Positions 10,524 through 42,398 of a stretch of DNA of 64,000 bases are shown here, piece by piece. How positions within the stretch are numbered: position 1 is the stretch's first letter; the number at the start of each line of letters is the position of its first letter. The translations under genes and the position numbers were made by a program. Under the pieces are notes generated by a model that did no database searches, was not told the DNA's origin, and saw only the letters and a program-made list of their open reading frames with translations. The stretch covers positions 1-64,000 of the IMG/VR virus record IMGVR_UViG_3300025853_000058; one strand, written 5' to 3'. The DNA is from a virus.

Positions 10524-10524
10524 G

Positions 10525-12795: not shown

Positions 12796-12831
12796 AAAAA
12801 AAGGCGAGCCGACCCGTTAGGGCCGACCCGC
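12796..12831 (-). terminator. Hairpin plus U-tract terminator closing the minus-strand block
   Basis: Minus strand gcgggtcggccc-TAAC-gggtcggctcgcc followed by T7, at the convergence of two gene blocks. Confidence 0.7.
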
Positions 12832-12975: not shown

Positions 12976-13127
12976 TTATTCTCGCCTTGTTTATCTTCAC
13001 CAAGTAGTCTGCTAATGTACTCTTCCACGCTTTTTTCAGTGATATTAGAACCACCAAATGCTGCGAAGAATAGTAACGAAACTACTATCAAGAAGATAAA
13101 CAAGCCAAACCATTCTGCTGTGGACAT
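12972..13127 (-). CDS. Small single-pass membrane protein (51 aa, not in ORF track)
   Basis: MSTAEWFGLFIFLIVVSLLFFAAFGG...; start and stop overlap neighbouring genes. Confidence 0.6.
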   Translation of the reverse strand: MSTAEWFGLFIFLIVVSLLFFAAFGGSNITEKSVEEYISRLLGEDKQGENK

Positions 13128-13729: not shown

Positions 13730-13947
13730 GAACCGTTAGTCCATAGTTTAGAAATCTTTGCGCTTTCTTCATCAACGGGTTCTTCTACGCCAATTCTGCG
13801 TTTAAGGAATGCCACAATGTTTGTGTTTGCTACTGATAGCATACTGCAACATTCCCAACCCTCATCACCGTAAGTATCTAATGTTTCTATAATAACTTTC
13901 GGTCCCTTCGTAATGTCAAAAACGACATATGTATTTTCGTATTTCAT
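13726..13947 (-). CDS. DUF4177-like small protein
   Basis: KYE...LDTYGDEGWE...AFLKR pattern. Confidence 0.5.
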   Translation of the reverse strand: MKYENTYVVFDITKGPKVIIETLDTYGDEGWECCSMLSVANTNIVAFLKRRIGVEEPVDEESAKISKLWTNGS

Positions 13948-15455
13948 CTGCTTTCCTCCTTTAGTTTCAAATATGGTGAACGACCTATCTTTTTCATATC
14001 AAAGAACCTTTCATATTCATTCCATATCCTGTATATTTGAGCCTGTGATTTACCTATTGCAGTTTGAAGTTCCTGTAAGAATAAAGTCTTGTTGATGTAT
14101 GGTTCCTTTACTGTTGCCATTTTGTCATAAACATTGATAAACTCTTCTTTATGGGAGATTACAGAAGACTTCGGCCCTTGCTGTCGTAGGCTTCGCTCAA
14201 GCCATTCAACCAATGTCTTATAACATTGTCGGGTAATGGCCCCTGCTTGCCTAACATTTTGACCTGTCACACGGTATCTTAGGTCTTTATTTTTAATAGC
14301 CGGTGCTTGAGCAATACTACATAGCACTGACATTTTAATTAAAATTTTAAGTAGCCGAGTAATAAAATTGCTAGCGACTTCTCTTACGAACAAACCGCTA
14401 GAATTAATAAAGTTCATCATGCTTTCATATTCTAACATTAGAACTTCTCTAAAATCATCTGTATAAACCATTGTGTCCATAGCAGTTCCTCCATCTTCAA
14501 GAACTTCCTTATAGTGCGCTTGTAGCGTATTATAAATGTTCATAATTGCCTTTGTAAAGTCTTCGATTGGCCCTTCAACATCTTCATAAATACCGGCTTT
14601 GAGTATCTGTTGCTTTCTCATTTTATCTAAAACGGCTTCGGGAACTTCCCAAATAAAGCATAGCATTCTTTGAAGGAGTCCCTTTTCAGTCATAATAGAA
14701 TTTAGTTCCTTTGGTGGATAAGTCATAGCAAGAACACTTCTTTCAGAAAAGCACTCGATTAAGTTTCCATCCACTAAAATTTTACGCATAACCCAACTCT
14801 CACCGTGTAAAGTATTCATCATAGTATTCAATAAAACCACAGTATCTTGCTGGTGTTGGCTAGGGCTAAATACGCCGGAATATTCAAACTCATCGTAATG
14901 GACAAAACCATGCCCTTGTAAGGCTCCCGAAAAGAATTTCTCCACCCATCTTCCGGTAGGTCTTTCATTCCCTTCATCGTCTTCGTCCATTACTTGTATG
15001 TTTTTCCATGTTCCTATTAAAGCCGCACTTGTAGCGACTTGAACGGAAAAGGTATCAAATTGCTTTGCTTTAGAATTACCGTCTTCGTCAATAACATTTC
15101 TATCTATTGGATGAGTCCCTTGTTTATTTATTCTGGCAAATACATTTTTTGCAATAGGCCCAGTAAAATTATACAATGTTGACTTACCTGAACCGGAAGT
15201 TTGTATTTGACACGAATGTATTCGTGTATCTTCAATATTTCTACCATTTGGTATCTTCACAAAGTCTTTACATATTTGTCCAAGCAAAGCAAAGAAATTA
15301 ATCACTGCTGGTACTTCATTAAAGTGAGCAACCTTTACTGCTGACTCTTGATAAAGTCTAACAATTTCAGGTAGTTTCTCACTAAAAGATGCTGTATTTT
15401 CTTCGTGGTTTTTTAGGAAAGTTTCTTCCCATTCTTCATCATAATCTTCATTCAT
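13944..15455 (-). CDS. MCM-like AAA+ helicase (divergent)
   Basis: Walker A SGSGKST, Walker B HYDEFE, LLQR arginine finger, probable C-terminal wHTH; near primase. Confidence 0.6.
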   Translation of the reverse strand: MNEDYDEEWEETFLKNHEENTASFSEKLPEIVRLYQESAVKVAHFNEVPAVINFFALLGQICKDFVKIPNGRNIEDTRIHSCQIQTSGSGKSTLYNFTGPIAKNVFARINKQGTHPIDRNVIDEDGNSKAKQFDTFSVQVATSAALIGTWKNIQVMDEDDEGNERPTGRWVEKFFSGALQGHGFVHYDEFEYSGVFSPSQHQQDTVVLLNTMMNTLHGESWVMRKILVDGNLIECFSERSVLAMTYPPKELNSIMTEKGLLQRMLCFIWEVPEAVLDKMRKQQILKAGIYEDVEGPIEDFTKAIMNIYNTLQAHYKEVLEDGGTAMDTMVYTDDFREVLMLEYESMMNFINSSGLFVREVASNFITRLLKILIKMSVLCSIAQAPAIKNKDLRYRVTGQNVRQAGAITRQCYKTLVEWLERSLRQQGPKSSVISHKEEFINVYDKMATVKEPYINKTLFLQELQTAIGKSQAQIYRIWNEYERFFDMKKIGRSPYLKLKEESR

Positions 15456-18549: not shown

Positions 18550-19446
18550 TTAAAACCACTCATCCAATTTTTTTTGTATTTTTCCTGTTCTTATGCTAGA
18601 TAAGTCCCAACCCATCGCTCGATAAATCGGCTCGGCCTTTTTCAAGACCTGTTGTGCATAGTGTTCCCAATCTGGTTCACAAGCACTAAAGTCTTCGTAA
18701 GTTATGCCTGAAATGTATTCAGCATTTCTTTTCTCCTTTGTTAAAGGATGGATGAAGGTGTCCATTGATTTAATTTTTAGATACAAATAAGTATCATCAA
18801 AATCAGTTTGATTTTTCTGCTGAACATATAGAACTCCAGCAATACCCGAACCTATGCTCGGTTTCTTTCCAGAAAAGGTCACAAAGTTTTTCGTGTCTTC
18901 TCCGCATTTTTTACACCACTTTAAATCTAAACATTCATTCAAGTGGTATTTACTACCACATTCATTACATTTAACATTAAAGCGTTCCTTTCTCAATCGG
19001 CTTCTTTTTATAACTGATTCTATTTCTAATTGTCCAGAAATTACTGACGAATAAACTGCATTTAACTTAGCATTAATCTTAGAAAGGGGTTCTTGATTGA
19101 CCCACATTTTAAGAACATCTGTTTGAACTGACTTAGATAATTTTGTTTCGCTCACTCTTTTAGCAGTGAAGCCGGTCATTGTAAATTTAGGCTTTTCTAA
19201 CCATTCTCCATCATCCCAAGCAACCATTCCTGCATTTCTGTTTTTCGTAGTTCCTACACCTAAAGCAGAATAATACTTCTCGAACTCCAATACAACAGGG
19301 TGTTGCTCTAATCCCATTACATTAGGAAAGTGTTCCCTAACAGACGATTCAATTTCTTTGATGGCAACTTTAGCCGACTCAACAGAATCTATTTGAACAT
19401 AGATTGAATCCGTATGTCCATAAACCACTTTCATTTTACTCACCAA
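18550..19446 (-). CDS. polB: Family B DNA polymerase, C-terminal subunit (probable start ATG 19434)
   Basis: Begins with motif C variant YGHTDS; LEFEKYY, KNRNAG; inserted CNEC...CKKC zinc finger. Confidence 0.85.
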   Translation of the reverse strand: MVSKMKVVYGHTDSIYVQIDSVESAKVAIKEIESSVREHFPNVMGLEQHPVVLEFEKYYSALGVGTTKNRNAGMVAWDDGEWLEKPKFTMTGFTAKRVSETKLSKSVQTDVLKMWVNQEPLSKINAKLNAVYSSVISGQLEIESVIKRSRLRKERFNVKCNECGSKYHLNECLDLKWCKKCGEDTKNFVTFSGKKPSIGSGIAGVLYVQQKNQTDFDDTYLYLKIKSMDTFIHPLTKEKRNAEYISGITYEDFSACEPDWEHYAQQVLKKAEPIYRAMGWDLSSIRTGKIQKKLDEWF

Positions 19447-20744: not shown

Positions 20745-22394
20745 TCATCCTTCCATCTCCTTTGCTTTAAATGCCGCTAATCTAATTGCTTCTCTAGCAC
20801 TAGCAGTAATACTAGCGGCTAAATCTACATCAGCCCAACCAAATCCTTGATAGGCTACAATTCCGTAAAATGAAGCCATTAGGCGTTTTACTGCCATTTG
20901 ATTGTTATGCCACTTTACTTCTTCCTTAGAATCTCCGGCCTCTCTTGCCTGTCGCATGAGCCGCTTATATTCATTCCGCAAAGTCTTCAATTCAAGAACG
21001 GCTCTTGGCAATAAACCAAGTTTATCTGTTTTGTAATAAAGTGTGTGTTCTCTTGTTGTTTCTGAGAAATCTCTTGGTGTTAGAATATTAACACCAAATT
21101 CAGTAGGTTCGTTTGATTTAGTTTCCCATGAAATATTGCGAGCAATCATCATTGATGGGTACAATCCTGCAAAATCAAAAGCCGCTACATTAAGATGTAG
21201 TCCGTTCGTTCCTTCACTAAGAGGGTCATAAATCATAGCACCTTCATAATCCTGTCTTTCAATATTTTTATCACCCGTTGGTGCTTTCCAAGTAGCATTC
21301 CTCATAAAATATATCGAACCCATATTACTTGCATAGAAACAAGATTCAAACGGAGCGCACAGTAATCGCTGTAATGAGATAATTGCTTCGCTACAAAAGT
21401 TTGTTTCATCAATTTCAACCATTAACTCAACATCAACTAAAGCATATTTAAGATATGTTTCTGTATCTTCGAGCCAAGCCCTGCGATAAAATTCATTTGG
21501 GTCTGGGAATTTCTTAGACACTAACTTAGTTTTACCAAGAACTTCTTCAGAAATATAGTTTAAAGACATTGATGGTAATGTTCCTCTTTGTGAATCATTC
21601 CACTGTCGCTCAAAAGCAAGGTCTAAATTGAGGGTTATGCGGCCCCCTATGGGCTGTTGGACCGGACTGAACCCACTTTCACCTTTAGTGAAAACAAGGC
21701 CGTTAGGGGTCTTCTTTACCCCTTCTATGCGGTTAATTGGTGACATGAGCATGGGGTTAATTCCCAAAGCACAGCACCTTTCAAGCAATTTTGGAATATC
21801 TGCAAAATTACCAAACCATGCAATTAACATATCGGGGTCTTTATTTACCATAACTCGAATAAAGGATTCAATCATTTCCTTTTCATCATCAAAGAACAAC
21901 GGTTGCTCTCCTTCATAATTAGGGAACCAAGCCCATTGATAGTATTCTTTATCATAATTATCGTACATTACAATAGTAGTAATTTCATCATGGTGTTCTC
22001 CACCTTGTTGCCATTCCATATCCCAATACCATTTACGAAGTTCGTATTCCGGCATTTCGTGAATCTTATCAACAGCATATCTGTTAGTAATAGAAACATC
22101 TGCTTCAAAGGTCTTGTTCCATTTTTTACGGGCTTTGTAAATATCACTAGCCTTTTCAACAACAACCTTTTGTAAAGGCTTACCTTGCAAAGAAACCCAA
22201 TCGCCTTTAATATACTTAAATGGTCGGGTAATGTGACGGCTTGCTGAATAATCATCAAACCTAAACTCTCCGTCTTCTATAAAGAAGTAAGGGTCGAAAG
22301 CCTCAAGTTTAAATTTACGCTCGCCATTTTCTCGCCATGCTGTGTATATGTGTTTTTCGTCTAAGCATTTACTAATTATCATTTTAATTACCAC
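20745..22394 (-). CDS. polB: Family B DNA polymerase, N-terminal subunit (exonuclease plus motifs A and B)
   Basis: ExoI WDME, ExoIII YALVD, motif A DFAGLYPS, motif B KRLMASFYG; ends just before motif C. Confidence 0.9.
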   Translation of the reverse strand: MVIKMIISKCLDEKHIYTAWRENGERKFKLEAFDPYFFIEDGEFRFDDYSASRHITRPFKYIKGDWVSLQGKPLQKVVVEKASDIYKARKKWNKTFEADVSITNRYAVDKIHEMPEYELRKWYWDMEWQQGGEHHDEITTIVMYDNYDKEYYQWAWFPNYEGEQPLFFDDEKEMIESFIRVMVNKDPDMLIAWFGNFADIPKLLERCCALGINPMLMSPINRIEGVKKTPNGLVFTKGESGFSPVQQPIGGRITLNLDLAFERQWNDSQRGTLPSMSLNYISEEVLGKTKLVSKKFPDPNEFYRRAWLEDTETYLKYALVDVELMVEIDETNFCSEAIISLQRLLCAPFESCFYASNMGSIYFMRNATWKAPTGDKNIERQDYEGAMIYDPLSEGTNGLHLNVAAFDFAGLYPSMMIARNISWETKSNEPTEFGVNILTPRDFSETTREHTLYYKTDKLGLLPRAVLELKTLRNEYKRLMRQAREAGDSKEEVKWHNNQMAVKRLMASFYGIVAYQGFGWADVDLAASITASAREAIRLAAFKAKEMEG

Positions 22395-30877: not shown

Positions 30878-31295
30878 TAAACCACCCCTGTTTGAATTTA
30901 TCTAATTCCTTTCTTGAAGTAAAGTATCTTGGTGTATCTAAATCATCAAGTCTATTAACAATCCAACAAGCACCACCTAAAGAAGATACTTGAACTACCT
31001 CATATTGCCCATCATTTACATTAATTACTTCAATAGTATTCATTTCTGGAACTAAACCATAAGTCTTTGTGATTTCACTTGCTACTTCATGGATATTATC
31101 AACAACATACTTAATGATGTGCGCTCGCTGAATAGGAATCTTAGGAGCAACCTTGATTGATAACTTACCTTTCATTCCACAAACCTTACATTTGTTTCCT
31201 TCACAAATAGGACAAGGTATTTCAGCATTATGAGGTGCTGGTAATGTCACTGTCACTGCTCTCTTTTTCATATTATTCCTCCAAAAGAACAGCAA
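30870..31295 (-). CDS. DnaJ-type zinc finger protein
   Basis: CPICEG..CKVCG.KG; adjacent to groEL. Confidence 0.5.
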   Translation of the reverse strand: MLFFWRNNMKKRAVTVTLPAPHNAEIPCPICEGNKCKVCGMKGKLSIKVAPKIPIQRAHIIKYVVDNIHEVASEITKTYGLVPEMNTIEVINVNDGQYEVVQVSSLGGACWIVNRLDDLDTPRYFTSRKELDKFKQGWFNE

Positions 31296-32784
31296 CTTCA
31301 GTAGTTAAGAACAATGAAGCAATTGAAATAGCCGCATTAAAACTTCCCTTAGTCACCTTTACAGGGTCAATAACTCCCGCTTCAAACAAATCTTCATACT
31401 TTTCAGTAAGAGCATTATAACCATAGTGCGGGTTTCCATTTTGGAATACAGGAAAAGGTACATCACCATGACCACCATTTTGCAGTAAAACTTCGGCAGG
31501 TTCAGACAGTGCATCATAAACAATCTTATGTCCGGTCTTTTCAATTGCTAGGTTCTTTCTAGCATTTAGCAAACCATATCCACCACCAACAATAATGCCT
31601 TCAGCAAGTGCGGCCTTAGTTGCATTTAGAGCATCATCCAACCGTTCTTTCTTTTCACGCATTTCAAGAGATGAAGATGCACCAATTTGAATTGTAGCGA
31701 TACCTCCACTCAATCGAGAGATTCGCTTCTTCAAACGCTTCTTATCAAAATCATCATCAATTGTATCGAATACTGACTTAAGAGTATTGATTCTCTCATC
31801 AGCAGAATTACCTCCAATAATAGTAGTGGATTCTTTTGTAATGATAATCTTCTCACAACTACCAAGTTCATCAAGAGTCACCAATTCGGGGTCGTCTTTG
31901 CTTTCATCAGTATAAAGTCTACCACCAACAATAGAAACAATGTCACCAAGTTCATCTAATTGAGCATCACCAAAATTAGGTGCGGTGACAACAGCAACTT
32001 CAATTGTCTTTTGTAGAATATTCATAATGATATTGTTTAATGCTGTACCATCCATTCCTTTAACGAATAGAACAATTGGTCGCTTTTCTACTGCGGCCAT
32101 TTCCAACATTGGCAATACTTCTGAAAAATTCTTCATAGCCAAATTAGAAGTAAAGATAAGAGGGTTAGTGAATGTTGTTTTACCATCTTCACCATTAGCC
32201 ATTAAATGACTTAAGTACCCTTCATCAATCTCCAAACCTTTACGAATAACCATACTCGTTCTATGGCTATTTGATTCTTCAACAGTAATAATTCCATCAC
32301 GCCCGACTCCTTCCAAAGCAGTGCTAATTAGACCACCAAGATATGCGTCATTGTTTGCGGCAATAGTAGCGACATTCATAATATCAGCATCACCAATATC
32401 ACAAGCCATCATTTCAAGGTGTTCAATAACAATGTTCTGTGCTTCTTTCAATTCCCTAGAAAGAGTATGAAGGTTCGCAACATCAGCATTATTGATTTGT
32501 TCACACAATGCTCTCGCAATAACACAAGCAGTTGTTGTTCCATCACCGGAATTGTCTTGTGCTTTATTTGCCAAGTTTTGAACCATTTGAACACCCATTT
32601 GAACATAAGGGTCTTCATGTGAAACATACTTCGTAATAGTCACACCATCGTTAATAATGACAGGCGGACTACCTTGAAGAATTACTGTCTTTGCTTGTGG
32701 CCCAAGTGTAGGTAATACTGTATCAGCAACCAAATTAATTCCTTGTAGTAGTTTTTCTTTAACTTTTTCTCCATGTATAATCAT
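31273..32784 (-). CDS. groEL: Group I chaperonin GroEL (Cpn60)
   Basis: TLGP, NDGVTI, GDGTTT, APNFGD, GIIVGGG and GVIDPVKV motifs; no C-terminal GGM tail. Confidence 0.93.
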   Translation of the reverse strand: MIIHGEKVKEKLLQGINLVADTVLPTLGPQAKTVILQGSPPVIINDGVTITKYVSHEDPYVQMGVQMVQNLANKAQDNSGDGTTTACVIARALCEQINNADVANLHTLSRELKEAQNIVIEHLEMMACDIGDADIMNVATIAANNDAYLGGLISTALEGVGRDGIITVEESNSHRTSMVIRKGLEIDEGYLSHLMANGEDGKTTFTNPLIFTSNLAMKNFSEVLPMLEMAAVEKRPIVLFVKGMDGTALNNIIMNILQKTIEVAVVTAPNFGDAQLDELGDIVSIVGGRLYTDESKDDPELVTLDELGSCEKIIITKESTTIIGGNSADERINTLKSVFDTIDDDFDKKRLKKRISRLSGGIATIQIGASSSLEMREKKERLDDALNATKAALAEGIIVGGGYGLLNARKNLAIEKTGHKIVYDALSEPAEVLLQNGGHGDVPFPVFQNGNPHYGYNALTEKYEDLFEAGVIDPVKVTKGSFNAAISIASLFLTTEVAVLLEE

Positions 32785-32797
32785 ATCTTATTCCTCC

Positions 32798-33130
32798 TTA
32801 AAACGATTTGCCATGCATATATTCACGGCTTTGATTGTATTCAATCTTAGCGAGAATCGCACCCGCTATATCCAAATCCATACCAAACGAATAATCCATA
32901 ATACGAATTACAGCGTCGGCTAATTCTTCTTCAAGAGAAGAAAACTCAATAATCTTACTTGATGAAGGGTTTCCATCTCTAAGAGCCTCAAGTGCTTCAC
33001 TAATTTCAGCATGGATTAAAGCCATGCGTTCACCATCATTAGGTTCTTCTTTCCAAAAACCATGATTAACGGCATTCATATAGACTTTCTTTGATACACT
33101 ATTCCAATGTCTTTCAAAATGACTCATCAT
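32798..33130 (-). CDS. MazG-like NTP pyrophosphatase
   Basis: EISEALE...EELAD motif. Confidence 0.8.
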   Translation of the reverse strand: MMSHFERHWNSVSKKVYMNAVNHGFWKEEPNDGERMALIHAEISEALEALRDGNPSSSKIIEFSSLEEELADAVIRIMDYSFGMDLDIAGAILAKIEYNQSREYMHGKSF

Positions 33131-33363
33131 TCATCACCTTCATAGGCATAAATCTTAGTAAAGGGTACAACAGTTAAAGAACCAATCATTTGATACTTAG
33201 TTCCTGTATTATCAAAATACACTGTTTTACCTACCAAGTATTCGTATTCCTTGCTAGTGCTTAGACACTTACCTTTATTATCGGCTTTGCTAATAATACC
33301 ACTACTTCGACTTGTTTGTTCTGTTTCAACAAGAATCCAATCTCCGCAACCTCTTAAAATCAT
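33127..33363 (-). CDS. groES: GroES-like co-chaperonin
   Basis: LRGCGDWILVE...GII...VGKTVYF...IYA pattern, 78 aa, near groEL. Confidence 0.6.
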   Translation of the reverse strand: MILRGCGDWILVETEQTSRSSGIISKADNKGKCLSTSKEYEYLVGKTVYFDNTGTKYQMIGSLTVVPFTKIYAYEGDE

Positions 33364-33645
33364 TCAATCCATCCCCCGTCGTTGAGGCCAAGAAGATGCT
33401 AAGTTTGTTTCAGCGATTACTCGAAGCGATGCAAATAACTTTTTACGCTTATCTTCTGCTTTCTCAGAATTATCTGACAAAGTGCTTTCTAATTCATCTA
33501 CAATCCTATGGATAATTGTCGCAGTTTCTTCATCTATATCATCATAGCCATTTTCTTCTACGGTATTAATCCAATTAAATAATTGTGCAATTCTTTCTTC
33601 CCAATTAATCATTCTTCTTCCTCCTTTCCAGCAATTCGAACCCAA
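33364..33645 (-). CDS. Hypothetical protein (probable start MINWEE)
   Basis: ATGA-coupled ORF. Confidence 0.45.
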   Translation of the reverse strand: MGSNCWKGGRRMINWEERIAQLFNWINTVEENGYDDIDEETATIIHRIVDELESTLSDNSEKAEDKRKKLFASLRVIAETNLASSWPQRRGMD

Positions 33646-33881
33646 GCCTTATTCATGTCTTTATCAACAAATGTATAAACATGGGTCTTATAGAACTTTT
33701 TGAGTTCTGCTGTCCTTTTGCCAGCCTTTCCCCAAGTCACCCCACGCTCGGTTTTGGGAACATTGGAATCTGAGGGATGCCGACTCGAATGTTTTTCTGC
33801 CCTTTCAGTTAAGGTAATAAATTCATATTCCTGCATTGGCCTATCTTGATTTTTGTACATTGTGCTAATTCCTTCTTTCAT
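33609..33881 (-). CDS. Hypothetical protein
   Basis: ATGA-coupled to the JAB gene. Confidence 0.5.
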   Translation of the reverse strand: MKEGISTMYKNQDRPMQEYEFITLTERAEKHSSRHPSDSNVPKTERGVTWGKAGKRTAELKKFYKTHVYTFVDKDMNKAWVRIAGKEEEE

Positions 33882-34414
33882 TCTTCTTCACTTCCATTCT
33901 TGTATTGTGTTGTGTATAATCCATTTTTATGAATACATAATTCATTTGGGGTGGATTGTTCCCAATGTCCGAAATGTTCGGGACCACCTAAAACATAGGC
34001 ACTTTCCATCAATGGTTCCCAAATAGAAACAGTTCTCCAATCAGTACCACTGAAATATGCGGCTCCAAAAGGATGAGTATGAATCCAGCACTTTACAGGT
34101 AGTTTCATACCAACAGGGTCAATCTTAAAATCAACAAAACCTGCTGTTCCGTAAGAGATATGTAGTTTATCTCCACCATCAACAACTACTTGAACTTCAA
34201 GCCCATTTAGAATAACAGTTGATGCTTTCCAAATAGAAAGGTGAAAGAACTCATTCGTAAAGTCCTTGTCTGCTCTAATGTATTCTTCCATAATAGAAGA
34301 TTCAATAGCATCTTGAAAGAATGCTCGTTCTTCCACCATATCCTCAAATGCTTGAATACTTTGCTTATCCATCTCTTCCAAATAATCAGGGTCATAACTA
34401 CTCATTTTAAACAC
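33878..34414 (-). CDS. JAB/MPN+ (JAMM) metalloprotease
   Basis: Upstream Glu (GLEVQV) and HTHPFGAAYFSGTD, an exact HxH-x7-S-x2-D motif. Confidence 0.85.
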   Translation of the reverse strand: MFKMSSYDPDYLEEMDKQSIQAFEDMVEERAFFQDAIESSIMEEYIRADKDFTNEFFHLSIWKASTVILNGLEVQVVVDGGDKLHISYGTAGFVDFKIDPVGMKLPVKCWIHTHPFGAAYFSGTDWRTVSIWEPLMESAYVLGGPEHFGHWEQSTPNELCIHKNGLYTTQYKNGSEEE

Positions 34415-35546
34415 CTCGCAACTTGTTCAACTTCTTCTCCAACTTGGCCGCCTTCTTAGCCTTTCGTGCTATTCTACGACGCTTCCAACGGCTCATATTG
34501 GTATTCTTAGCCTCTTCCTTCTTTCGCTTTGAAATGACTTTAGCGGCCTTCTTAAGCATAGCAATATGTTCAGGTTGTTCACTATCAACAATCATTTCTA
34601 ACCTTTGAGCAAGTGAAGCATAACTTCGACCAAATTGATTTCTTGCTTCATCAATTGACAATTCATAGAAATTACACAAGAGTTCAAATTCCTCTTCATT
34701 TTTCCAATGCTTTTGGCTTCTTTCGTGCTTTCGTTCTGGAAGTGCTTCCAATACTTCATTTACTTCCCTAAACATTTTCTTCTCAGCGTTTGAAAGATGG
34801 CGAGTGGTTGGATTACCATGCTTTTCAACAAAGACTTCAATCTTTTCAGGTAGTGTTTCCGCCTTTGGCCTAATCTCATTTTTCTTAACTAGAATATCCT
34901 TAATCATTTGACGCTTAAAAGAAATATACTTTGAAGTTTGTCCACCTTTCTTAAGTTTAGACCATCGAGCAGAAATCGAAAACTTAGTCCTGTTATCGAA
35001 TGAATCAACGAGTTCTTCGCAAACAGACTTTTTCATTCCGTTTGTGATTTCACAATCATACATTTTTTGAAGCAAAATTTTGTCTTCTGCGGCACTCCAT
35101 CTTTTTTGATTTCTTGGTGTGTGTTTACTAACAACCTTTACAGTAGATTTTTTCGTTTGTTGGTTTTCACCAACAAGTTCGGAAATTGCGTTTCGCAGGA
35201 ATGATTTACTCAACTGTCCTTTAAGTGAACTAGAGTACAATGTGTTAGTAATAGTATTAATATCCTTCTTGGTAGTATTATCGTCAGTTGTTAGGTTGGC
35301 GTAGTATCTACACTGTTTCTTTGTTGCTGGCTCATAATTTTCTGGTATTTTCATTTCTTCTTCCTCCTTATTTTGATTTTGTTTTTCGACGAACCATACT
35401 ATTTTATTACGGATATTCGCCCCTGTTTTCTTAACAGAATATGTTTGTTCTAACCTCCTTGCAATAGCGTTCCAAGTTAATCCTTCTTCTCTTAATTTTA
35501 AAACAAATTCAATTTGTTCGTCTGTCCATTTATTATATTTATTCAT
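34407..35546 (-). CDS. Multi-domain Myb/HTH repeat protein
   Basis: Repeated KWTDEQ, RWSAAED and HWKNEEE...GRSYASL Myb-like motifs. Confidence 0.6.
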   Translation of the reverse strand: MNKYNKWTDEQIEFVLKLREEGLTWNAIARRLEQTYSVKKTGANIRNKIVWFVEKQNQNKEEEEMKIPENYEPATKKQCRYYANLTTDDNTTKKDINTITNTLYSSSLKGQLSKSFLRNAISELVGENQQTKKSTVKVVSKHTPRNQKRWSAAEDKILLQKMYDCEITNGMKKSVCEELVDSFDNRTKFSISARWSKLKKGGQTSKYISFKRQMIKDILVKKNEIRPKAETLPEKIEVFVEKHGNPTTRHLSNAEKKMFREVNEVLEALPERKHERSQKHWKNEEEFELLCNFYELSIDEARNQFGRSYASLAQRLEMIVDSEQPEHIAMLKKAAKVISKRKKEEAKNTNMSRWKRRRIARKAKKAAKLEKKLNKLRGV

Positions 35547-36100
35547 ACATTCACAACCTTATATTGGCATACTTCTTCTTGATTCATATATCTTTGAATC
35601 CATTGTGCGCCCATTCCTGCAATAACAATTTGCATAAAATGAACGGCTTTGTTTGTTCCATCCCAAGAATCTCCTTGACAACTAAATGACCCATCTTTAC
35701 CTGCTAAAAGCGTATCGTACATTTTGGGGTCGGCTTGATAACTAACAAGGGCGGCGTTCCTACCTTGCGCCCGTAAGTCTAACCACTTAATACTTGTGTT
35801 GTAAAGGGTTCGTCTAACCGACAAATTATCCACACAACAGATAACCAAGTCATAACCAGACATTTGCTTTTCAGTCAGTATTGGGAACTTTGAGTAGTGG
35901 TTCACTGATTCATATTCATTCATCATAACACTAGCCTTATTCTGCCCAACATGACCTCTCTTAAAGTTTTGATATGTTAAGTTCTTTGTTTCTACAATAT
36001 CGGGGTCTGCAACAGTAATGTTGTATAGTCCGACTTTATCTAAGTATTGAGTCAAGAATGACCCAATGCCGCCTGTTCCAATTATTAGTATTTTTCTCAT
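35543..36100 (-). CDS. E1/ThiF-family adenylating enzyme
   Basis: GTGGIG, DPDIVETKNL.YQ, NKA, CCVDN..R motifs and downstream Cys in FSCQ. Confidence 0.9.
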   Translation of the reverse strand: MRKILIIGTGGIGSFLTQYLDKVGLYNITVADPDIVETKNLTYQNFKRGHVGQNKASVMMNEYESVNHYSKFPILTEKQMSGYDLVICCVDNLSVRRTLYNTSIKWLDLRAQGRNAALVSYQADPKMYDTLLAGKDGSFSCQGDSWDGTNKAVHFMQIVIAGMGAQWIQRYMNQEEVCQYKVVNV

Positions 36101-36102
36101 AT

Positions 36103-36594
36103 TTATTCCTCCTTATATTTCATTCTTTGTTCTCTCATTTTTTTGTCGTAGTTTTCTTCCCACTTCAAATAGTCCTCTTCCCACAATATGTGCATATGCC
36201 AATCAGCAGAATGTTCTTTCAAACCTTTCCAATCAACTTCCATTGAACAATATTCACAATTTTTATCATCACATAGTTCGCCGCTTCTTTCTTCTGTGTC
36301 AAAACAAAGATAAGAGTCATATTTGAAATAGTATTCAACATGATACCCCTGCTCTCTCCTTTCTTTTACCCACTTACTTTCAGGAGTAAGAGGCAAAACA
36401 TCATATTCAGCAACTATGTGAATTTCACAAACAGGACAATCCCATTCAGTTTCTGCCAAATGCCATTCTTCAATAGGCATAGTGTGGGTTCTTAGAAGAA
36501 CTTCTGCCTTTTCACGACAATATGGGCAATCACTTTGTAGGTTTTTCATAGTCTCAACTATGTTGTTTTCCCTTTCAATCTCAAATTCATTCAT
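36103..36594 (-). CDS. Cys-rich zinc-finger protein
   Basis: CPYC, CPVC and C..CEYC motifs. Confidence 0.55.
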   Translation of the reverse strand: MNEFEIERENNIVETMKNLQSDCPYCREKAEVLLRTHTMPIEEWHLAETEWDCPVCEIHIVAEYDVLPLTPESKWVKERREQGYHVEYYFKYDSYLCFDTEERSGELCDDKNCEYCSMEVDWKGLKEHSADWHMHILWEEDYLKWEENYDKKMREQRMKYKEE

Positions 36595-37453
36595 TCTTAT
36601 TCTCTCCTAATTCACTAAATTGTTTGCCTTTTACTTGGGCACAAGTTGAAAGACCTATTAATCCTAAAAGGTCTTTCGTTTGTTGTTGTATTGCTGACCT
36701 TGAAACTTCTGTCTTTTCAGAAATAATAGTCAGTGTTATTTTTGGATAAACAAAGATATTCTTTGAAATCCAACAAATGCTTTCATAGTAAGCATTTCTT
36801 TTATTATATTCTCGCTTTATAACAATAGACTCAAAGAACTCTAAAGTTTCCAGACATTGTGAAACGAATACTAAATCGCTACTTATTTGATTAGCCGATT
36901 TCTTTAGAAGAAACATAGGGTCTGGTTGCATATGCTTGGCATTACCACCATAATGTTTCTTGATTCTTCTAATCAATCGGTTTATGCTTTTTCCGCCACA
37001 GTTAAATTCTTCACACGCCGCTTTCAACTTAACAGGTGTTCTATTCTCAAATAAAACAAACCAAGCCACAGCAGTTCCTCTTACTTCCAAAGAAGCAGAA
37101 GAAAAGATATTCTTAGCGTGTAATTCACGATACAGAATACCGGCTCTATCTCTTAGAGATGTTTCAGTCACACCTAAAGAAGAAAGAACTATTTGTGAAA
37201 ATACAACACCTTTTCTTAGGTGTCCATCCTTTGATACAAAACGGTTTTGAGTATTTGCTAACTTGCTATATCCTTTAATGTTGCTTCCTAAGATACCTTT
37301 GTCTGGTGAGCGTGTCACTTCTTCATTGGTTTGTATTCTTACAGACTGTTCAAACAACTCGGTTGCTACTATCAGCCCACAGTATTGACAGGCAGTTTCG
37401 CCTATAATTTCATCATACTCAAAATCATTCCCTTTGCATTCTACACATCTCAT
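36587..37453 (-). CDS. tfb: Transcription initiation factor B (TFB/TFIIB-like)
   Basis: N-terminal CVEC...GETACQYCGLI zinc ribbon followed by two cyclin-like helical repeats. Confidence 0.75.
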   Translation of the reverse strand: MRCVECKGNDFEYDEIIGETACQYCGLIVATELFEQSVRIQTNEEVTRSPDKGILGSNIKGYSKLANTQNRFVSKDGHLRKGVVFSQIVLSSLGVTETSLRDRAGILYRELHAKNIFSSASLEVRGTAVAWFVLFENRTPVKLKAACEEFNCGGKSINRLIRRIKKHYGGNAKHMQPDPMFLLKKSANQISSDLVFVSQCLETLEFFESIVIKREYNKRNAYYESICWISKNIFVYPKITLTIISEKTEVSRSAIQQQTKDLLGLIGLSTCAQVKGKQFSELGENKNE

Positions 37454-38588
37454 TAAAATCCTTCCTATTTTTATTTGGTTCCGATACTATGTATCGCTTA
37501 ATTGTATTTACAATCTGTATTGTCATATTGTCATTTAATAGAGCCATCGCTCTTGCGGCAAATTGGTCGCCAAGAGATGAACCCCTTGACATATTATCAA
37601 TACATATTGGTCCCTTCCAAACCCACTTACATAAGTCTATGGGTATTGGTTGGTTGCCTTCATCTAATTCCATTTTAGGTTGCGAAACAAAAGTTGAAAC
37701 CTTTTGTATATCGCTTTTAAATTGGTTGTCTGAAATAAGCCAATCATAATGATTACCTTTAATATACAAAGCAGTAGGGTTTTTACCGTCTTCCATAATC
37801 AATTTTAGCCTTTCGCTGTATTGTTCTGCCATTTCAGTTAGAAGTTGAACGGCTCTTTCTTCAACAATATCTTGCTGTCTGTTTTGCTTAAGAAATTCCC
37901 TCATCAAATGAAGTTCATTTTCAGTAGGTTCCCTACCAATAACGAAAGTATAAAGTTTCTTTATACCGAAATAGGCAAATTTTGATTTTTTCCTACCATC
38001 AATAAAGAACTTGCACATATTATCCAAATCTCGATTTTTGATAGTACCCCAAACACCATCGGATATTTCAATCGCACATTCTTTATCCGAAATTTGTTGA
38101 ACTGCTAACCTAACCTCAATCTTTTTGAAGTCACTAAAGAAGTGATAAGGCATTCTGTTTTCAAGACAATACTTAGTACGCTCGCTCAAAGATAGAACAG
38201 TCATTAAAGACTTCATTAATTTAACACTATCTGTTTCTCTAATAGCAGAAAAGGTCACTCTTGCTAAAGCATTTGTGATAGTGCTTAGTGCTTCACCTTT
38301 ACCGTTCAAATAATATCTATTTCCTTTCAATTCTAAAGCCACAGGCAACGAACCAATGTATATTAGAAATGGCCCTTTTGACCAACGAACATTATTCCTT
38401 TGGTCTTTTCTAGATAATATCTTTCTCCACCAACCAACTAGTCCTGAATGAACAGGGTCTTTATCGTTTCTGTTATATGTGACAAACTGTTCTTTTGAGT
38501 ACCAATGTATATTTTCGGAGGAAATTTCAACAGGGTTAAAATAATCTCTACTATCATCGGGTTTTTTAATTTTTAATTTTATTGTCAT
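37425..38588 (-). CDS. Hypothetical protein (387 aa) with C-terminal GPICID motif
   Basis: Long ORF coupled to tfb; function unresolved. Confidence 0.6.
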   Translation of the reverse strand: MTIKLKIKKPDDSRDYFNPVEISSENIHWYSKEQFVTYNRNDKDPVHSGLVGWWRKILSRKDQRNNVRWSKGPFLIYIGSLPVALELKGNRYYLNGKGEALSTITNALARVTFSAIRETDSVKLMKSLMTVLSLSERTKYCLENRMPYHFFSDFKKIEVRLAVQQISDKECAIEISDGVWGTIKNRDLDNMCKFFIDGRKKSKFAYFGIKKLYTFVIGREPTENELHLMREFLKQNRQQDIVEERAVQLLTEMAEQYSERLKLIMEDGKNPTALYIKGNHYDWLISDNQFKSDIQKVSTFVSQPKMELDEGNQPIPIDLCKWVWKGPICIDNMSRGSSLGDQFAARAMALLNDNMTIQIVNTIKRYIVSEPNKNRKDFNEMCRMQRE

Positions 38589-38592
38589 GTAA

Positions 38593-38763
38593 TCACATCA
38601 TATATATATTGTCAATTTTATTATTACTCGCACATTCTATGTGCATTTCTTTTTTAATTTCTTCTGGTAATAACAACTGCCCACCACAAATGCGGCAAGA
38701 GGTCGCTATTCTTTTTTTGTAGGCTCTATGGCTTGTGGTGTATTTAGGGTCTTTTTCTTTCAT
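38593..38763 (-). CDS. Small zinc-finger protein (56 aa, not in ORF track)
   Basis: MKEKDPKY...CRICGGQ...HIEC; ATGA-coupled. Confidence 0.5.
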   Translation of the reverse strand: MKEKDPKYTTSHRAYKKRIATSCRICGGQLLLPEEIKKEMHIECASNNKIDNIYMM

Positions 38764-39095
38764 CTATTCCACCTGTAATTTCCTTTACACAATTTGCATT
38801 CGTGTCCACATTCGCCTTCATTTGAGGAATGATACATAATAGCATGGTGTCTTACCAAGAGGTTATCATTTAACCATGTGTCAAATCCAATTTTTACAGC
38901 ATCTTCAAATTCCCAAAGAGCCGTATATAGGGTTTGTCTTAGTCTAAATTTTCTATCATCCTCATCATCTAGTTCATCACATACTTCTAATGCTAGCAGA
39001 AGTTTAATTCGTGAAACATGGGAAAAGTCATCCATTACAGTTAGCAGGCTATTTTTTTGATGGGTGTATGGAAGTTTAATCCATCTTTCTTCCAT
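38760..39095 (-). CDS. Hypothetical protein
   Basis: ORF downstream of RNR. Confidence 0.5.
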   Translation of the reverse strand: MEERWIKLPYTHQKNSLLTVMDDFSHVSRIKLLLALEVCDELDDEDDRKFRLRQTLYTALWEFEDAVKIGFDTWLNDNLLVRHHAIMYHSSNEGECGHECKLCKGNYRWNR

Positions 39096-39104
39096 AAGCC
39101 CACC

Positions 39105-40979
39105 TCAAATTTCACAAAGCCCGCCAGCGCAAGCAAGTTCACCGGATAAATCAGTATTATCTTCCGACTCAATCACTTTAGTCAAATCAATATCTTCCAA
39201 AAGGTTATACATTTCTTCGTATTGTTCTTTAGTAATTGTTTCAAATGGTGCTTGTTTATAAGTTCCACCATCATAAGGAAGAACAGCAAGACCGTTGTAG
39301 TAATGTCGATTAAACCACATCCATTCTGCAACATCATCCCATTCATCATCTTTGATTGAGATAGTAGCAGAAACATTATGAGTGTTCATACCATCAACAT
39401 GACCGTTGCGAACCCAACGAATGCTAAATTGTTTTACTCTTTCAAGTAATTCAAATACACTTTCACTTCGAGTAGTGGCTCCTTCCGGTGCTTTTTGTGG
39501 AATGCTAATCACTGCTTGTTCAGTAGGGTTAAAGTATTCATCTTCTACTAATTCAGGATGATTGTTAAGTAGATAACCATAAATTGCTTCGTTTTTACCT
39601 ACACGAATACGACGAATATAGTTTTCGTCATGCCAAGCATGAATACCACTACTTGTTCCAAGAACAAGAGAAGTCGTTCCTGCCGGTTTAACGCAAGTAA
39701 TTCGGCTTGCTTCATTAATTCCAATTATCTTAGCGATTCTATGATTTTCAAGTTTTGCTTGAAGTGACGCAGATTCAATATCTAACTTTTCAACAACATT
39801 AGAAGCAATACCTGTCATAGATACACCAAGCAAAGAATCTTTTTCAGTAGTCTTTCGCCAAATATCACGAAGGTAGTGGAAGTCTGTATATCCAGCCTGT
39901 AATGTTCCTAAGAAAGCGGCGGCTTTAACACGGTCTTCTAAATCCTTTTGTCCTTCAACAGTAGAAGCATTTACTTCTGTTAGATTACAGAATTGGAAAG
40001 GTCTTAGTGCAATTTCACAACAAGGATTAGTTCCCCAATCTTTATCATTACTAAAATAAATTCCGGGTTCTCCAGAACCACTTAATTGAATCCTTTCCCA
40101 AACTTGCATAAAAAATTCTTTATTAATTCTATGTCGTAGTAATACTGCTGAGTTGTTTGCTCTACCCCGTTGTGGATTATTAACATACCATTCACCTGCT
40201 TTACAAGCAAGCATTTTAGAATCATCAGCACTAAACAGGCTAATCATAGCGGCACGACGAATACCTCCTGCGAGGACAGCATCAGCCAAATGGCACATAA
40301 TATCATGTGCTTGAAGCGAATCAAGTTTAGAACCATTAGGTAGGTTTTGTAAAATACCTTCGACCTTTACTAAACATTCACGCAAAGGTTGAGGGCCGGG
40401 TGCTTTTCCACCAGAAGTCTTTAATAAAGAACCTTTAGGTCTAATATCAGAATAGTCAAACTTAGGACTATCTTTCTTTACACCCATATAACATTCCATA
40501 AGAACCTTTACTGCGTCAGCCCAACCTTCAATTGAATCATTAATTAAATAGCGGCGTTGTCGAGTATTGTTAGGTTGTCTTATTTCGGGTAATTGCTCAA
40601 TATGGTGACGCTGGACAGAATACCCAACCCCCGTTCCACCGAGAAGTAAAAACATAGATTCACTAAAAGCAATATAGGAGTCAATAGGCAAATAAGCGCA
40701 GTTATAAACCCTATTTGGGCTAATCTCCACAGGCTTTCCGCCAAATTGCATAGAACGCATGGACGGTAGAATCTTCCTTGTTCTAACATAATTTTTGTAT
40801 ATCTCATTTATTTCCTCTCCTAGTTCGGGATATGTTTTGATGTGCATATTTTTATTTCGGGTGACTATCTCATCCCATGTTTCTCTTCGTTCACTTTCCG
40901 GTAAAAACCTTGCATATTTCATATGTACGGTAATATCGGAGAGTATCTGTATTGCTTTGTTTTCAGTCATAATTAACAC
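39105..40979 (-). CDS. nrdJ: Class II (adenosylcobalamin-dependent) ribonucleotide reductase
   Basis: YNC, GGTGVGYS, GGIRRAA, NPCCEI, TCVKPAGT and C-terminal CAGGLCEI; no NrdB in window. Confidence 0.9.
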   Translation of the reverse strand: MLIMTENKAIQILSDITVHMKYARFLPESERRETWDEIVTRNKNMHIKTYPELGEEINEIYKNYVRTRKILPSMRSMQFGGKPVEISPNRVYNCAYLPIDSYIAFSESMFLLLGGTGVGYSVQRHHIEQLPEIRQPNNTRQRRYLINDSIEGWADAVKVLMECYMGVKKDSPKFDYSDIRPKGSLLKTSGGKAPGPQPLRECLVKVEGILQNLPNGSKLDSLQAHDIMCHLADAVLAGGIRRAAMISLFSADDSKMLACKAGEWYVNNPQRGRANNSAVLLRHRINKEFFMQVWERIQLSGSGEPGIYFSNDKDWGTNPCCEIALRPFQFCNLTEVNASTVEGQKDLEDRVKAAAFLGTLQAGYTDFHYLRDIWRKTTEKDSLLGVSMTGIASNVVEKLDIESASLQAKLENHRIAKIIGINEASRITCVKPAGTTSLVLGTSSGIHAWHDENYIRRIRVGKNEAIYGYLLNNHPELVEDEYFNPTEQAVISIPQKAPEGATTRSESVFELLERVKQFSIRWVRNGHVDGMNTHNVSATISIKDDEWDDVAEWMWFNRHYYNGLAVLPYDGGTYKQAPFETITKEQYEEMYNLLEDIDLTKVIESEDNTDLSGELACAGGLCEI

Positions 40980-41362
40980 CTATATTTACTTGCTTTTGGT
41001 AATTCTAGAAGAGAAGAAAAAGAATGGAGCCATTCACCATTTTTGTAAATGACCCACTCTTTTTCTTCTATAAACTTCCATTCATCAAAGTCTTCGATTG
41101 CTGAATTACCATGCTTAGAGAAAAGCATTTCAACACTCTCGAAGATATTACCCCGATAATTTATTTTTGATTGGCCCTTAGCGCAAATTTTCCCGTGTTT
41201 GCCTTGCGCTATCATATACATCTCTTCATAAAAATCTGGCTTAAATAAAGCCAATTCTTCATATATGATTGGTTGAAGCATTTTCCAGCCTTTTGTTTCC
41301 AAAAAGAGTTTCAATGCTTCTGCTGATACAAAGTTGCGAATGTCCATAGTTGCCACACCCAA
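40973..41362 (-). CDS. Hypothetical protein
   Basis: ORF coupled to nrdJ. Confidence 0.55.
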   Translation of the reverse strand: MGVATMDIRNFVSAEALKLFLETKGWKMLQPIIYEELALFKPDFYEEMYMIAQGKHGKICAKGQSKINYRGNIFESVEMLFSKHGNSAIEDFDEWKFIEEKEWVIYKNGEWLHSFSSLLELPKASKYRC

Positions 41363-41400
41363 AAAAGGGTAGGGTACAGCCTAACGGCCATACCCCACCC
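41361..41400 (-). terminator. Hairpin plus U-tract downstream of the Ubl gene
   Basis: Minus strand gggtggggtatggcc-gtta-ggctgtaccctaccc followed by T6. Confidence 0.65.
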
Positions 41401-41436
41401 AAATTTTGCAACTTGCAAACGGTTTAAGAACCTTGC

Positions 41437-41637
41437 TTATCCGCCGACGATGGCAGGTACTAAATCAACATTTTGAACAGTTTCCCAATTAATATCAGTG
41501 ATTGATTCCCTTGCTACCATATCACCGTCAATAAAGACCCAATGGGTAGGGTGTGTGTCAATTTGTTCAATAACCGACTCACTAACTAAAGTGAGGTCGG
41601 TGTGGCCTGTTTCGTTCAAAATTCGTAGTTTAATCAT
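41437..41637 (-). CDS. Ubiquitin-like (beta-grasp, SAMP/ThiS-like) protein
   Basis: 66 aa, WVFIDG...VDLVPAIVGG with free C-terminal GG; own TATA element and GGAGG RBS. Confidence 0.8.
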   Translation of the reverse strand: MIKLRILNETGHTDLTLVSESVIEQIDTHPTHWVFIDGDMVARESITDINWETVQNVDLVPAIVGG

Positions 41638-41657
41638 TGTGATTCCTCCGTTGTGTT

Positions 41658-41683
41658 CTCTCCACTGTCTGTACCCTTATAAA
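41658..41683 (-). promoter_or_regulatory. Promoter TTTATA-N5-ACAGACA-N-TGGAGAG upstream of the Ubl gene
   Basis: TATA-like box; same motif and spacing at 48795-48820. Confidence 0.6.
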
Positions 41684-41748
41684 CCGATGCGGTTCGGGCT
41701 GTCTTTTCATTTTTCTTCATTTTCTTGTTATTCATTTTTTTCACTTCC

Positions 41749-42015
41749 TTAAAAGTTATCCTCATATTCTCTATCTTCTTTCTCAAACTTTCGCTGTTCT
41801 TCAAGATAGCCGGTAAGAATCATGTCCATCTTATCCTGCATATCATGTATAATTCCAGCAATAGTTCGTCGTTTTAGGCTAATCCAAATGCGGTGATAAG
41901 TATTGATAATCACCACAGGTAAATCGTCTTCATTTGCTTTGATAATAATAGGGGGTAATTCCCTATCATCAACAAATCTCATCTCAACCTTTGTTTCTCT
42001 TTCTAATGTATTCAT
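41749..42015 (-). CDS. Hypothetical protein
   Basis: Coupled ORF. Confidence 0.55.
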   Translation of the reverse strand: MNTLERETKVEMRFVDDRELPPIIIKANEDDLPVVIINTYHRIWISLKRRTIAGIIHDMQDKMDMILTGYLEEQRKFEKEDREYEDNF

Positions 42016-42398
42016 TCGTATTCCTCCATATCAAAATTTGGTAGCACTAAGGCAACTACCTCTCCGTTTTCGTCGTATTCCTTTTGCATAATCTGGTCAA
42101 ATACCCACTTAGCATCATCACTGATAACTAATCGAGTTTCATCGGACCTTGCTGAGAATAATGCACATTCTACATTCTTAAGGAATCGTTCTTGTAAAAG
42201 CCTTACACAGTTCTCACTGTATATAATAAGACTTTCATCATCTAAATATAACTCACTTTCTTTGACAACTTCAATAACTTGGTCCAAAGTAAGGTAGCCT
42301 TGATTATACAGCAAGTTTAGCAGGTTTCTGTCAATTAGGCCCATCATGTCATATTCCTCATTTGTAATTTTGATGGTCATGCCAACACCTGCAACCAT
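42012..42398 (-). CDS. Hypothetical protein
   Basis: Coupled ORF. Confidence 0.5.
   Translation of the reverse strand: MVAGVGMTIKITNEEYDMMGLIDRNLLNLLYNQGYLTLDQVIEVVKESELYLDDESLIIYSENCVRLLQERFLKNVECALFSARSDETRLVISDDAKWVFDQIMQKEYDENGEVVALVLPNFDMEEYE

Follow-up and report, generated by a model that had tools for sequence, protein, structure and literature searches.

Described ubiquitin-like systems and the present locus

The type I Bub operons of bacteria, which correspond to class 6E of Iyer, Burroughs and Aravind (2006; PMC1779556) and were taken up by Ye et al. (2024; PMC11601596), are the nearest described systems to the gene set discussed here. The set comprises a small ubiquitin-like protein (Ubl), a compact E1-like adenylating enzyme and a JAB/JAMM zinc metalloprotease. 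It is encoded in a stretch of viral DNA of 64,000 nucleotides, in the following called the window, which is the start of the 76,276-bp IMG/VR record IMGVR_UViG_3300025853_000058 (estimated completeness 81%). The window is that of a magrovirus, i.e., an ocean virus of the Poseidoniales (Marine Group II archaea, MGII), and not of a halovirus, because it contains a characteristic set of replication and repair genes (see below) and because one homologue of the 66-aa Ubl is listed by name as a protein of Poseidoniales virus YSH_150918. Haloferax, which an earlier note on this DNA had chosen as the experimental setting, is therefore merely a surrogate host. More likely than not, the virus encodes a minimal module for the activation and conjugation of a Ubl, the counterpart of a module on the chromosomes of the Poseidoniales.

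With Bub the present set shares a Ubl of one to three beta-grasp units that is made as a fusion and is released by JAB after a conserved glycine. It also shares a minimal E1 of the ThiF/UBA5 type, which consists of the adenylation domain and is coupled to JAB (fused in Bub; here adjacent, and fused in some hosts). The differences, however, are substantial. Ubl, E1 and JAB of the virus are separate genes, and where the host proteins are fused, the order is E1-JAB, whereas it is JAB-E1 in Bub. Here an invariant cysteine is found in the presumed crossover-loop position of E1 and in a partner domain; Bub uses tyrosine and serine instead and forms oxyesters (PMC11601596). A search of the 76-kb record (81% complete) for DUF6527/BubE (PF20137) gave nothing at E <= 1. 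BubAB is a Ubl-E2 fusion; the viral Ubl stands alone, Ubl-X fusions (see below) occur among its host and metagenomic relatives, and the candidate partner proteins are devoid of detectable sequence similarity to UBC. The repeats of the host poly-Ubls each end in GG, and the present set belongs to archaea and their viruses, whereas Bub is bacterial.

Archaeal sampylation depends on SAMP1-3, UbaA and HvJAMM1 of Haloferax volcanii. It resembles the present set in its archaeal setting, in a small beta-grasp protein that ends in GG, in a single E1 without a recognisable E2 and in its JAMM protease; in structural comparison, PfJAMM1 (structure 5ld9) ranks second among the matches of the viral JAB. 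UbaA, however, is a full MoeB-type E1 with an N-terminal RYxRQ region and zinc-binding CxxC pairs, and it is also engaged in sulfur transfer. The viral E1 of 185 aa has neither the RYxRQ region nor the CxxC pairs, the Poseidoniales hold a MoeB/UbaA-like enzyme separately, and the Ubl family is without ThiS or MoaD signal in Pfam.

The Bil system (BilABCD) likewise combines a Ubl, an E1 and a JAB that pre-processes the Ubl C-terminus in one gene set (PMC10557695), and its Ubl (8tyz_B) and its deubiquitinase (DUB; 8tyy_B) are among the structural matches of the viral Ubl and JAB. Bil, however, works with a large multi-domain E1 and a clear E2 (PMC10557695), whereas the E1 here is a single domain of 185 aa and no match to PF00179, PF14457 or PF14461 was obtained. 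As to viruses, ThiF/E1-like genes of the Helarchaeota 'Nidhogg' viruses were proposed to exploit ubiquitin-like modification (bioRxiv 10.1101/2021.07.29.454249). That preprint reports E1-like homologues only, the host being assumed to supply Ubl and E2; the magrovirus, in contrast, has its own Ubl, E1 and JAB. In a key-word search, the magrovirus papers PMC5434244, PMC10160649 and PMC11706807 showed no mention of ubiquitin, ThiF or JAB, and a survey of archaeal Caudoviricetes, searched in the same way, leaves these genes unmentioned. A full-text literature search yielded no paper that ties the Poseidoniales or archaeal viruses to such a gene set. In the literature searched, the set of magroviruses and Poseidoniales is undescribed.

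The three proteins

The open reading frames (ORFs) of Ubl, E1 and JAB are all present as the earlier note had described them, on the minus strand (Table 1). The Ubl family comprises 358 homologues, in all of which the AIVGG motif is invariant. Arg and Lys are lacking in the vicinity of the Ubl tail. Among the 120 relatives listed, 40 end at GG and 80 carry one to four extra, variable residues (NY, NL, SY, Q and others); a variable tail after an invariant GG is a sign of a precursor that needs trimming by a protease. The AlphaFold2 (AF2) model of the Ubl has a mean predicted local distance difference test (pLDDT) of 92.8 and is a beta-grasp with the order strand-strand-helix-strand-strand-helix-strand. 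Its top matches are all Ub, MoaD, ThiS, ISG15 or SAMP. Foldseek places ubiquitin at the top (probability 0.98); VIA-align finds MoaD (Z 5.6 and 5.3) and the Bil Ubl (Z 5.2), and also ISG15, ThiS, SAMP1 and TtuB. With a Z of at most 5.6, the structural similarity is modest for a domain of 66 aa. The beta-grasp fold, on which the earlier note had staked its reading, is thus what the model shows. By sequence, the Ubl has no match in Pfam (including ThiS/MoaD), PHROGs, NCBIfam, PADLOC or the PDB sequences, and the family profile gave no recurrent Pfam hit.

In the JAB protease, E73, H112-x-H114, S122 and D125 are invariant in 50 homologues, which bears out the intact HxH-x7-S-x2-D motif noticed before. 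The Pfam model Prok-JAB scores 17.7 bits, which is below its cut-off of 25, and covers the motif region alone. With the AF2 model (pLDDT 81), almost all Foldseek matches are JAB/MPN proteins, and VIA-align finds the RadC JAB (Z 8.0), PfJAMM1 (7.2), AfJAMM (6.6), Rpn11 (6.3), Cap3 (5.8) and the Bil DUB (5.6).

As regards the function of JAB, it had been supposed that the Ubl needs no maturation and that the protease acts as a deconjugase. The first half of this statement is correct for the Ubl of this virus, which ends at GG. JAB is, however, probably a maturase as well as a possible deconjugase, because two thirds of the listed Ubl relatives (80 of 120) are tailed and the poly-Ubls and Ubl fusions of the hosts need cutting at GG.

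The E1 is recognised by Pfam ThiF (PF00899) with 73.4 bits (cut-off 28.1; E 2e-20) over residues 3-175. In 40 homologues, G8, G10, G11, G13, D32, K55, D91 (of CVDN), R96 and Cys141 (of SCQG) are invariant, and the motifs GTGGIG, DPD, CVDN..R and SCQG are invariant or nearly so. The compact ThiF-type enzyme without CxxC, as it was first described, is thereby confirmed. The sequence is devoid of any CxxC and thus of the zinc site that MoeB, ThiF and UbaA build from two CxxC pairs. The protein begins at Rossmann strand 1 (MRKILIIG); the N-terminal helix with the arginine finger (RYxRQ) is missing, and the invariant Tyr43 aligns with the Arg of NLxRQ in the E1s of the PDB. Cys141 is conserved also in the host E1s and in those fused to Ubl. 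It sits 50 residues after the Mg-binding aspartate (D91), a spacing which we take to be that of the crossover-loop cysteine in ThiF and MoeB. In PDB profile searches Cap2, UBA3, MccB, UBA5 and MoeB are about equally distant; the best NCBIfam matches are the ThiF and MoeB models, all far under their cut-offs.

Immediately upstream of E1, a protein of 163 aa with four cysteine pairs (CPYC, CPVC, C..C, C..C) is encoded at 36103-36594 on the minus strand. It was detected by tblastn in 8 of 29 related loci and may be a lineage-specific zinc-finger accessory. E1-like sequence is also met in crAss-like phages, which encode a protein of about 336 aa (e.g., L030:5650-6660, Bacteroides phage DAC15) that is often annotated as 'thiamine biosynthesis protein'. 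Over its C-terminal part, this protein is 27-28% identical to the compact E1, which is aligned in full length. As a close analogue this gene was dropped; an HMM (hidden Markov model) search detected no Ubl or JAB in its 12.5-kb neighbourhood.

Linkage of the genes in viruses

That Ubl, E1 and JAB constitute one functional module is supported by five independent lines: the tailed Ubls mentioned above, fusions and tandems, synteny in magroviruses, a cluster in a phage-like contig (L031), and the distribution in the hosts. The alternative would be that the three genes have nothing to do with each other in function, a conserved replication block having made them neighbours, and that the GG ending is incidental. 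It has in its favour that the genes are spread across 7.8 kb in the window, among genes for a ribonucleotide reductase (RNR), a TFIIB-like and a Myb-like protein, those for RNR and the Myb-like protein being the ones that spread out the set. Moreover, the whole block is syntenic in close relatives, and co-occurrence there is weak evidence alone.

The order Ubl, 387-aa gene, E1, JAB is identical in every magrovirus locus that reaches far enough, the loci having been anchored on E1 (n=29) or on GroEL (n=63). The only GroEL-anchored locus without the set is a distant one, its GroEL being merely 31% identical. Few genes of the magrovirus block are conserved as well as E1 (72-93% identity) and Ubl (64-86%). 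In one lineage (L109) the set is condensed to 4.4 kb, within which Ubl, two small Cys-rich ORFs, the 387-aa gene, a TFIIB-like gene, two further small ORFs, E1 and JAB follow each other.

A profile search of 1.8 billion representative proteins revealed how the domains are combined. Ubls occur as tandem doubles and triples, every repeat of which ends in (L/I/M)VGG; Ubl is fused to E1 (P0404), and a Ubl-Ubl-E1 fusion exists as well (P0370, L062). The E1 part of P0404 is 31% identical to the E1 of the window over the full length (E 5e-19). Ubl is also fused to a domain of about 300 aa with one cysteine, here called X. Single-protein scans of viral contigs with P0370 and P0405 gave no matches.

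The phage-like contig L031 (IMGVR_UViG_3300042515_002448), which encodes PolA and a DnaB-like helicase, contains within 4.2 kb (9923-14097) a Ubl ending in GGGLLN, a 685-aa protein, an RNase H-like gene, JAB and E1. The gene set is therefore not confined to magroviruses. The co-occurrence of the three genes in relatives, the other point on which the earlier reading had been staked, is accordingly what was found: in the fixed order of the magrovirus loci, in the L031 cluster and in a shared host pattern. Against a chance neighbourhood stand the Ubl-E1 fusions, the compact clusters of 4.4 kb and 4.2 kb in other lineages, the matching phyletic patterns of the hosts, and a GG that never changes in a family whose members, more than 350 in number, vary in their tails. 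We consider it highly improbable.

A homologous set in the Poseidoniales

The cluster of triple Ubls has 320 members with names from metagenome-assembled genomes (MAGs) of Candidatus Poseidoniales, on contigs of up to 789 kb; Ubl-X fusions occur on contigs of up to 2 Mb. Among species-representative genomes, 32 MAG contigs contain the triple Ubl. Two of them bear bacterial labels, whereas Poseidoniales or Euryarchaeota/Methanobacteriota is the label of nearly all. Five genomes with a triple Ubl each gave one strong match to the viral E1 profile (E ~1e-25), adjoining one JAB (E ~1e-18).

The phyletic pattern was established with an even sample of 81 Poseidoniales genomes. E1 is present in 49 of them, JAB in 49 and Ubl in 48; 46 have all three and 31 have none. 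The pairwise co-occurrence corresponds to a Fisher P of ~1e-19 per pair, a value that overstates independence, the sampled genomes being mutually related. Host E1 and JAB adjoin wherever both positions are listed, and in 4 genomes they share one reading frame. Viral and host Ubls align end to end with their GG termini matched, at 23-31% identity, and the catalytic core of JAB is 41% identical (E 4e-20). The proteins of virus and host are clearly related, albeit distant.

The five genomes with one strong E1 match each also carry a second, canonical E1 of the MoeB/UbaA type, which has an RYxRH motif and, towards the C-terminus, a motif of rhodanese-like appearance (by eye). In a phylogenetic tree the compact E1s are set apart from host MoeB with 100/100 support; within them, host and viral enzymes form subclades of their own, which are less well supported (85/68, 89/84). 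Where the long-branch E1s of L031 and of the crAss-like phages belong is unsure. The neighbours of the host E1-JAB pair are conserved in several species and comprise, by eye, a Taw1-like radical-SAM (S-adenosylmethionine) gene and an enoyl-CoA hydratase. Beside the radical-SAM gene, the pair is followed in genomes G001, G002, G004 and G005 (L066, L067, L068, L062) by an acidic protein (about 80 aa) that is conserved and has weak Pfam hits.

With a homologous set in the host, hijacking or mimicry of a host pathway has to be considered. The viral JAB could strip host conjugates or waste poly-Ubl, and the viral Ubl and E1 could be decoys or take over host machinery. The set of the host is then taken to be a stress or antiviral system like Bil or Bub, and the bacterial Bil and Bub systems have indeed been linked to antiphage immunity (PMC10557695, PMC11601596). 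That 46 of the 81 host genomes own homologous E1, JAB and Ubl, and that Ubls and JAB cores of the two sides are as similar as described, fits such interference. A typical defence island, however, would not be expected to have constant neighbours in several species, as the host E1-JAB pair has. Furthermore, the virus retains a complete set, which is more than a protease, and viral and host E1s belong to separate deep clades and so may not cross-react. Interference with the host pathway is, in our judgement, quite unlikely as the explanation; it overlaps, however, with a viral conjugation module and is compatible with it.

Protein conjugation or sulfur transfer

E1-like enzymes and beta-grasp proteins also serve sulfur transfer. 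The viral E1 could adenylate the Ubl, a thiocarboxylate would result, and its sulfur would be delivered to a cofactor, a nucleoside or a small molecule; JAB would merely trim the precursor, as Mec+ does for CysO. Several findings agree with this possibility. The best, albeit sub-threshold, NCBIfam matches of the E1 are ThiF and MoeB; MoaD chains top the VIA-align comparison of the Ubl, ThiS and TtuB ranking lower; and Pfam models detected no E2 in the record. Enzymes of the host could complete such a pathway.

The partners of a sulfur relay, however, are not encoded in the record. The claim had been made for the window; HMM searches extended to the whole 76-kb record yielded no match to rhodanese (PF00581), ThiG (PF05690), MoaE (PF02391), PP-loop thiolase (PF01171) or PAPS (phosphoadenosine phosphosulfate) reductase (PF01507). 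The Pfam-scanned genes of the window point to replication, repair and a chaperonin. The hosts own the separate MoeB/UbaA-type E1 with its motif that is rhodanese-like by eye. The PDB profile of the viral E1 is as close to Cap2, UBA3 and UBA5 as it is to MoeB. Finally, there are the tandem poly-Ubls and the fusions of the Ubl-X type with their one-Cys domain of about 300 aa; to our knowledge, such architectures are no features of sulfur carriers. A function as sulfur carrier therefore appears unlikely.

The 387-aa protein and the search for an E2

A candidate for a fourth component is the 387-aa protein listed in Table 1. Its gene is present in every magrovirus locus that reaches its position, and in the compact lineages it lies close downstream of Ubl, behind two small ORFs. 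The latter, of 111 and 56 aa, are found in all loci that reach them and are contiguous with Ubl and the 387-aa gene in L109; the 111-aa ORF has no match in Pfam. They are possible accessory zinc-binding proteins.

In the X domain of the hosts an invariant cysteine stands within a C-I-Q motif; further on, a D and an N-D are conserved. A narrow profile detected X in 21 of the 81 host genomes, all of them E1-positive (Fisher P 3e-6), and in one genome X, E1 and JAB are contiguous. A motif similar to that of the 387-aa protein is seen at the C-terminal end of the 685-aa protein of L031. Aligned by hhalign, X (seven sequences) and the 387-aa family gave an E of 0.0011 and a probability of 20% over 124 columns, which include the cysteine motif; with a smaller X alignment the result was not significant (E 0.043, probability 1%). 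BLASTP of the 387-aa protein against P0405 showed no similarity. The 387-aa, X and 685-aa proteins have no matches in Pfam, in PDB sequence profiles, in the ESM Atlas or, by tblastn, in GenBank phages.

The 'possible E2' of the earlier note could not be substantiated: PF00179, PF14457 and PF14461 have no match in the record. From its position and sequence motif, the 387-aa protein is a candidate carrier or partner, short of an established E2.

Proposed mechanism and its weak points

For the viral conjugation module we envisage the following sequence of events. The Ubl would be made mature, with a GG end as here, or with a short tail; in the hosts it would be made as poly-Ubl or fusion. The JAB zinc protease would cut after GG. 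Next, the C-terminal glycine of the Ubl would be adenylated at the expense of ATP by the compact E1, for which a homodimeric state as in ThiF, MoeB and UBA5 is probable, and the Ubl would probably be loaded as a thioester onto Cys141 of E1. Lysines of viral or host proteins would receive the Ubl from there, without an intermediary as in E2-free archaeal sampylation, or via the one-cysteine 387-aa protein. Removal of the tag may be a further task of JAB. The steps of adenylation, thioester formation and conjugation are inferred from genes and models, as are all targets and the part played by the 387-aa protein.

Some facts weigh against this scheme. MoaD, after all, is the best structural match of the Ubl model in VIA-align. 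Tailed Ubls that are trimmed by JAB also occur in pure sulfur-carrier pathways (CysO/Mec+, QbsE/QbsD). The E1 has no Arg-finger helix and a Tyr in place of the Arg of NLxRQ, and its catalytic competence is therefore assumed. No UBC-type or Prok-E2 domain (the three Pfam models named above) was matched in the 76-kb record; this record, however, is 81% complete, and absent genes may lie in the missing part. The link between the 387-aa protein and X is weak, a hypothesis built mainly on gene position and a shared cysteine motif. The kinship of the sampled host genomes has already been mentioned. What had been claimed at the outset was a reversible protein-tagging system. Of this claim, the union of Ubl, E1 and JAB in one module stands by virtue of fusions, synteny, phage cluster and host pattern; the conjugation of the Ubl to proteins is likely but unproven, and a recognisable E2 was not found.

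Genomic setting

The DNA of the window has a G+C content of 36%. Its genes for replication and repair comprise an RFC-like clamp loader, an ATP-dependent DNA ligase, an XPF/ERCC4 nuclease, a PD-(D/E)XK nuclease, a UvrD-like helicase and a pyrimidine-dimer glycosylase; a class II RNR, a Cpn60 chaperonin and a TFIIB-like zinc-ribbon protein are also encoded. Such a set is typical for large archaeal tailed viruses. The family B DNA polymerase is distributed over two ORFs (Table 1), which are separated by about 1.3 kb of small ORFs. A block on the plus strand contains an ORF of 2188 aa (3598-10164) without Pfam match and encodes a protein with a concanavalin-like lectin domain; it is presumably the tail or fibre region.

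Table 1. Positions of the Ubl system, its candidate accessories and the DNA polymerase in the window
Feature	Position	Strand	Basis or remark
Family B DNA polymerase, C-terminal polymerase part	18550-19446	-	ORF
Family B DNA polymerase, exonuclease and N-terminal polymerase part	20745-22394	-	ORF
JAB/JAMM zinc metalloprotease, 178 aa, N-terminal helical extension	33878-34414	-	Motif conservation and AF2 model
Compact E1-like adenylating enzyme, 185 aa, single Rossmann domain, invariant Cys141	35543-36100	-	Pfam ThiF and homologues
387-aa protein, invariant W-x-G-x-I-C-I-D-N ... G-D-Q ... N-D	37425-38588	-	Candidate fourth component
Two small Cys/His-rich ORFs, 111 aa and 56 aa	38593-39095	-	Always between the Ubl side and the 387-aa gene
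Terminator-like hairpin, 15 pairs (9 G-C), then TTTTTT, 37 nt past the Ubl stop	41367-41400	-	Hairpin scan
Ubl, 66 aa, C-terminus VDLVPAIVGG (ends at GG)	41437-41637	-	ORF, homologues and AF2 model

Downstream of JAB, at 31273-33363 on the minus strand, follow a 78-aa protein that is GroES-like by eye (no Pfam match at E <= 0.001) and the Cpn60/GroEL gene. Compact magrovirus lineages equally have GroES-like and GroEL genes directly after JAB (L109:9400-11290). This suggests that the Ubl genes and the viral chaperonin form one proteostasis block.

The Ubl gene had been credited with its own promoter and terminator. The terminator is real in so far as a 15-pair hairpin with a T-run follows the gene; a private promoter is not supported. 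The ATG of the Ubl overlaps the stop of an upstream 56-aa ORF (ATGA), and its start is preceded by a GGAGGA motif. A sigma-70 scan around the gene is uninformative, with 31 sites against 28.5 expected, i.e., at chance level, the model being ill-suited to an archaeal virus.

Hairpins with a T-run are enriched at 33500-42200, where 14 sites were found and shuffled sequences let expect 4.7; the virus may use them as intergenic transcription stops. Many proteins of the window end in a run of glutamates (EEE/EEEE), e.g., at 33878-33895, where the run is conserved throughout the JAB family, and gene ends often overlap the start codon of the next gene. The terminal Glu codons may double as a ribosome-binding site of the GGAGGA type for the following gene, as with the motif before the Ubl start.

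Implications

Going beyond the single virus, we tentatively suggest that MGII archaea and magroviruses share a hitherto undescribed minimal pathway of Ubl conjugation. Its parts would be a poly- or single Ubl, an E1 of 185-220 aa with a crossover-loop cysteine, a JAB that acts as maturase or eraser, and a one-cysteine carrier devoid of sequence similarity to the UBC-type E2s. During infection the diverged viral copy would serve to tag proteins of the host or of the virus itself, and the GroES/GroEL that follow JAB may take part in this.

The system is very small, with a tag of 66 aa, an E1 of 185 aa and a protease of 178 aa, and should therefore be easy to reconstitute. From it one could learn how E1 chemistry works in an enzyme that has neither the usual arginine finger nor the zinc site, and whether there is a non-UBC carrier. 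If the suggestion is true, protein regulation and virus-host conflict in the ocean would have a major layer that has gone unstudied, a Ubl system kept in all sampled magroviruses and in 46 of the 81 host genomes sampled.

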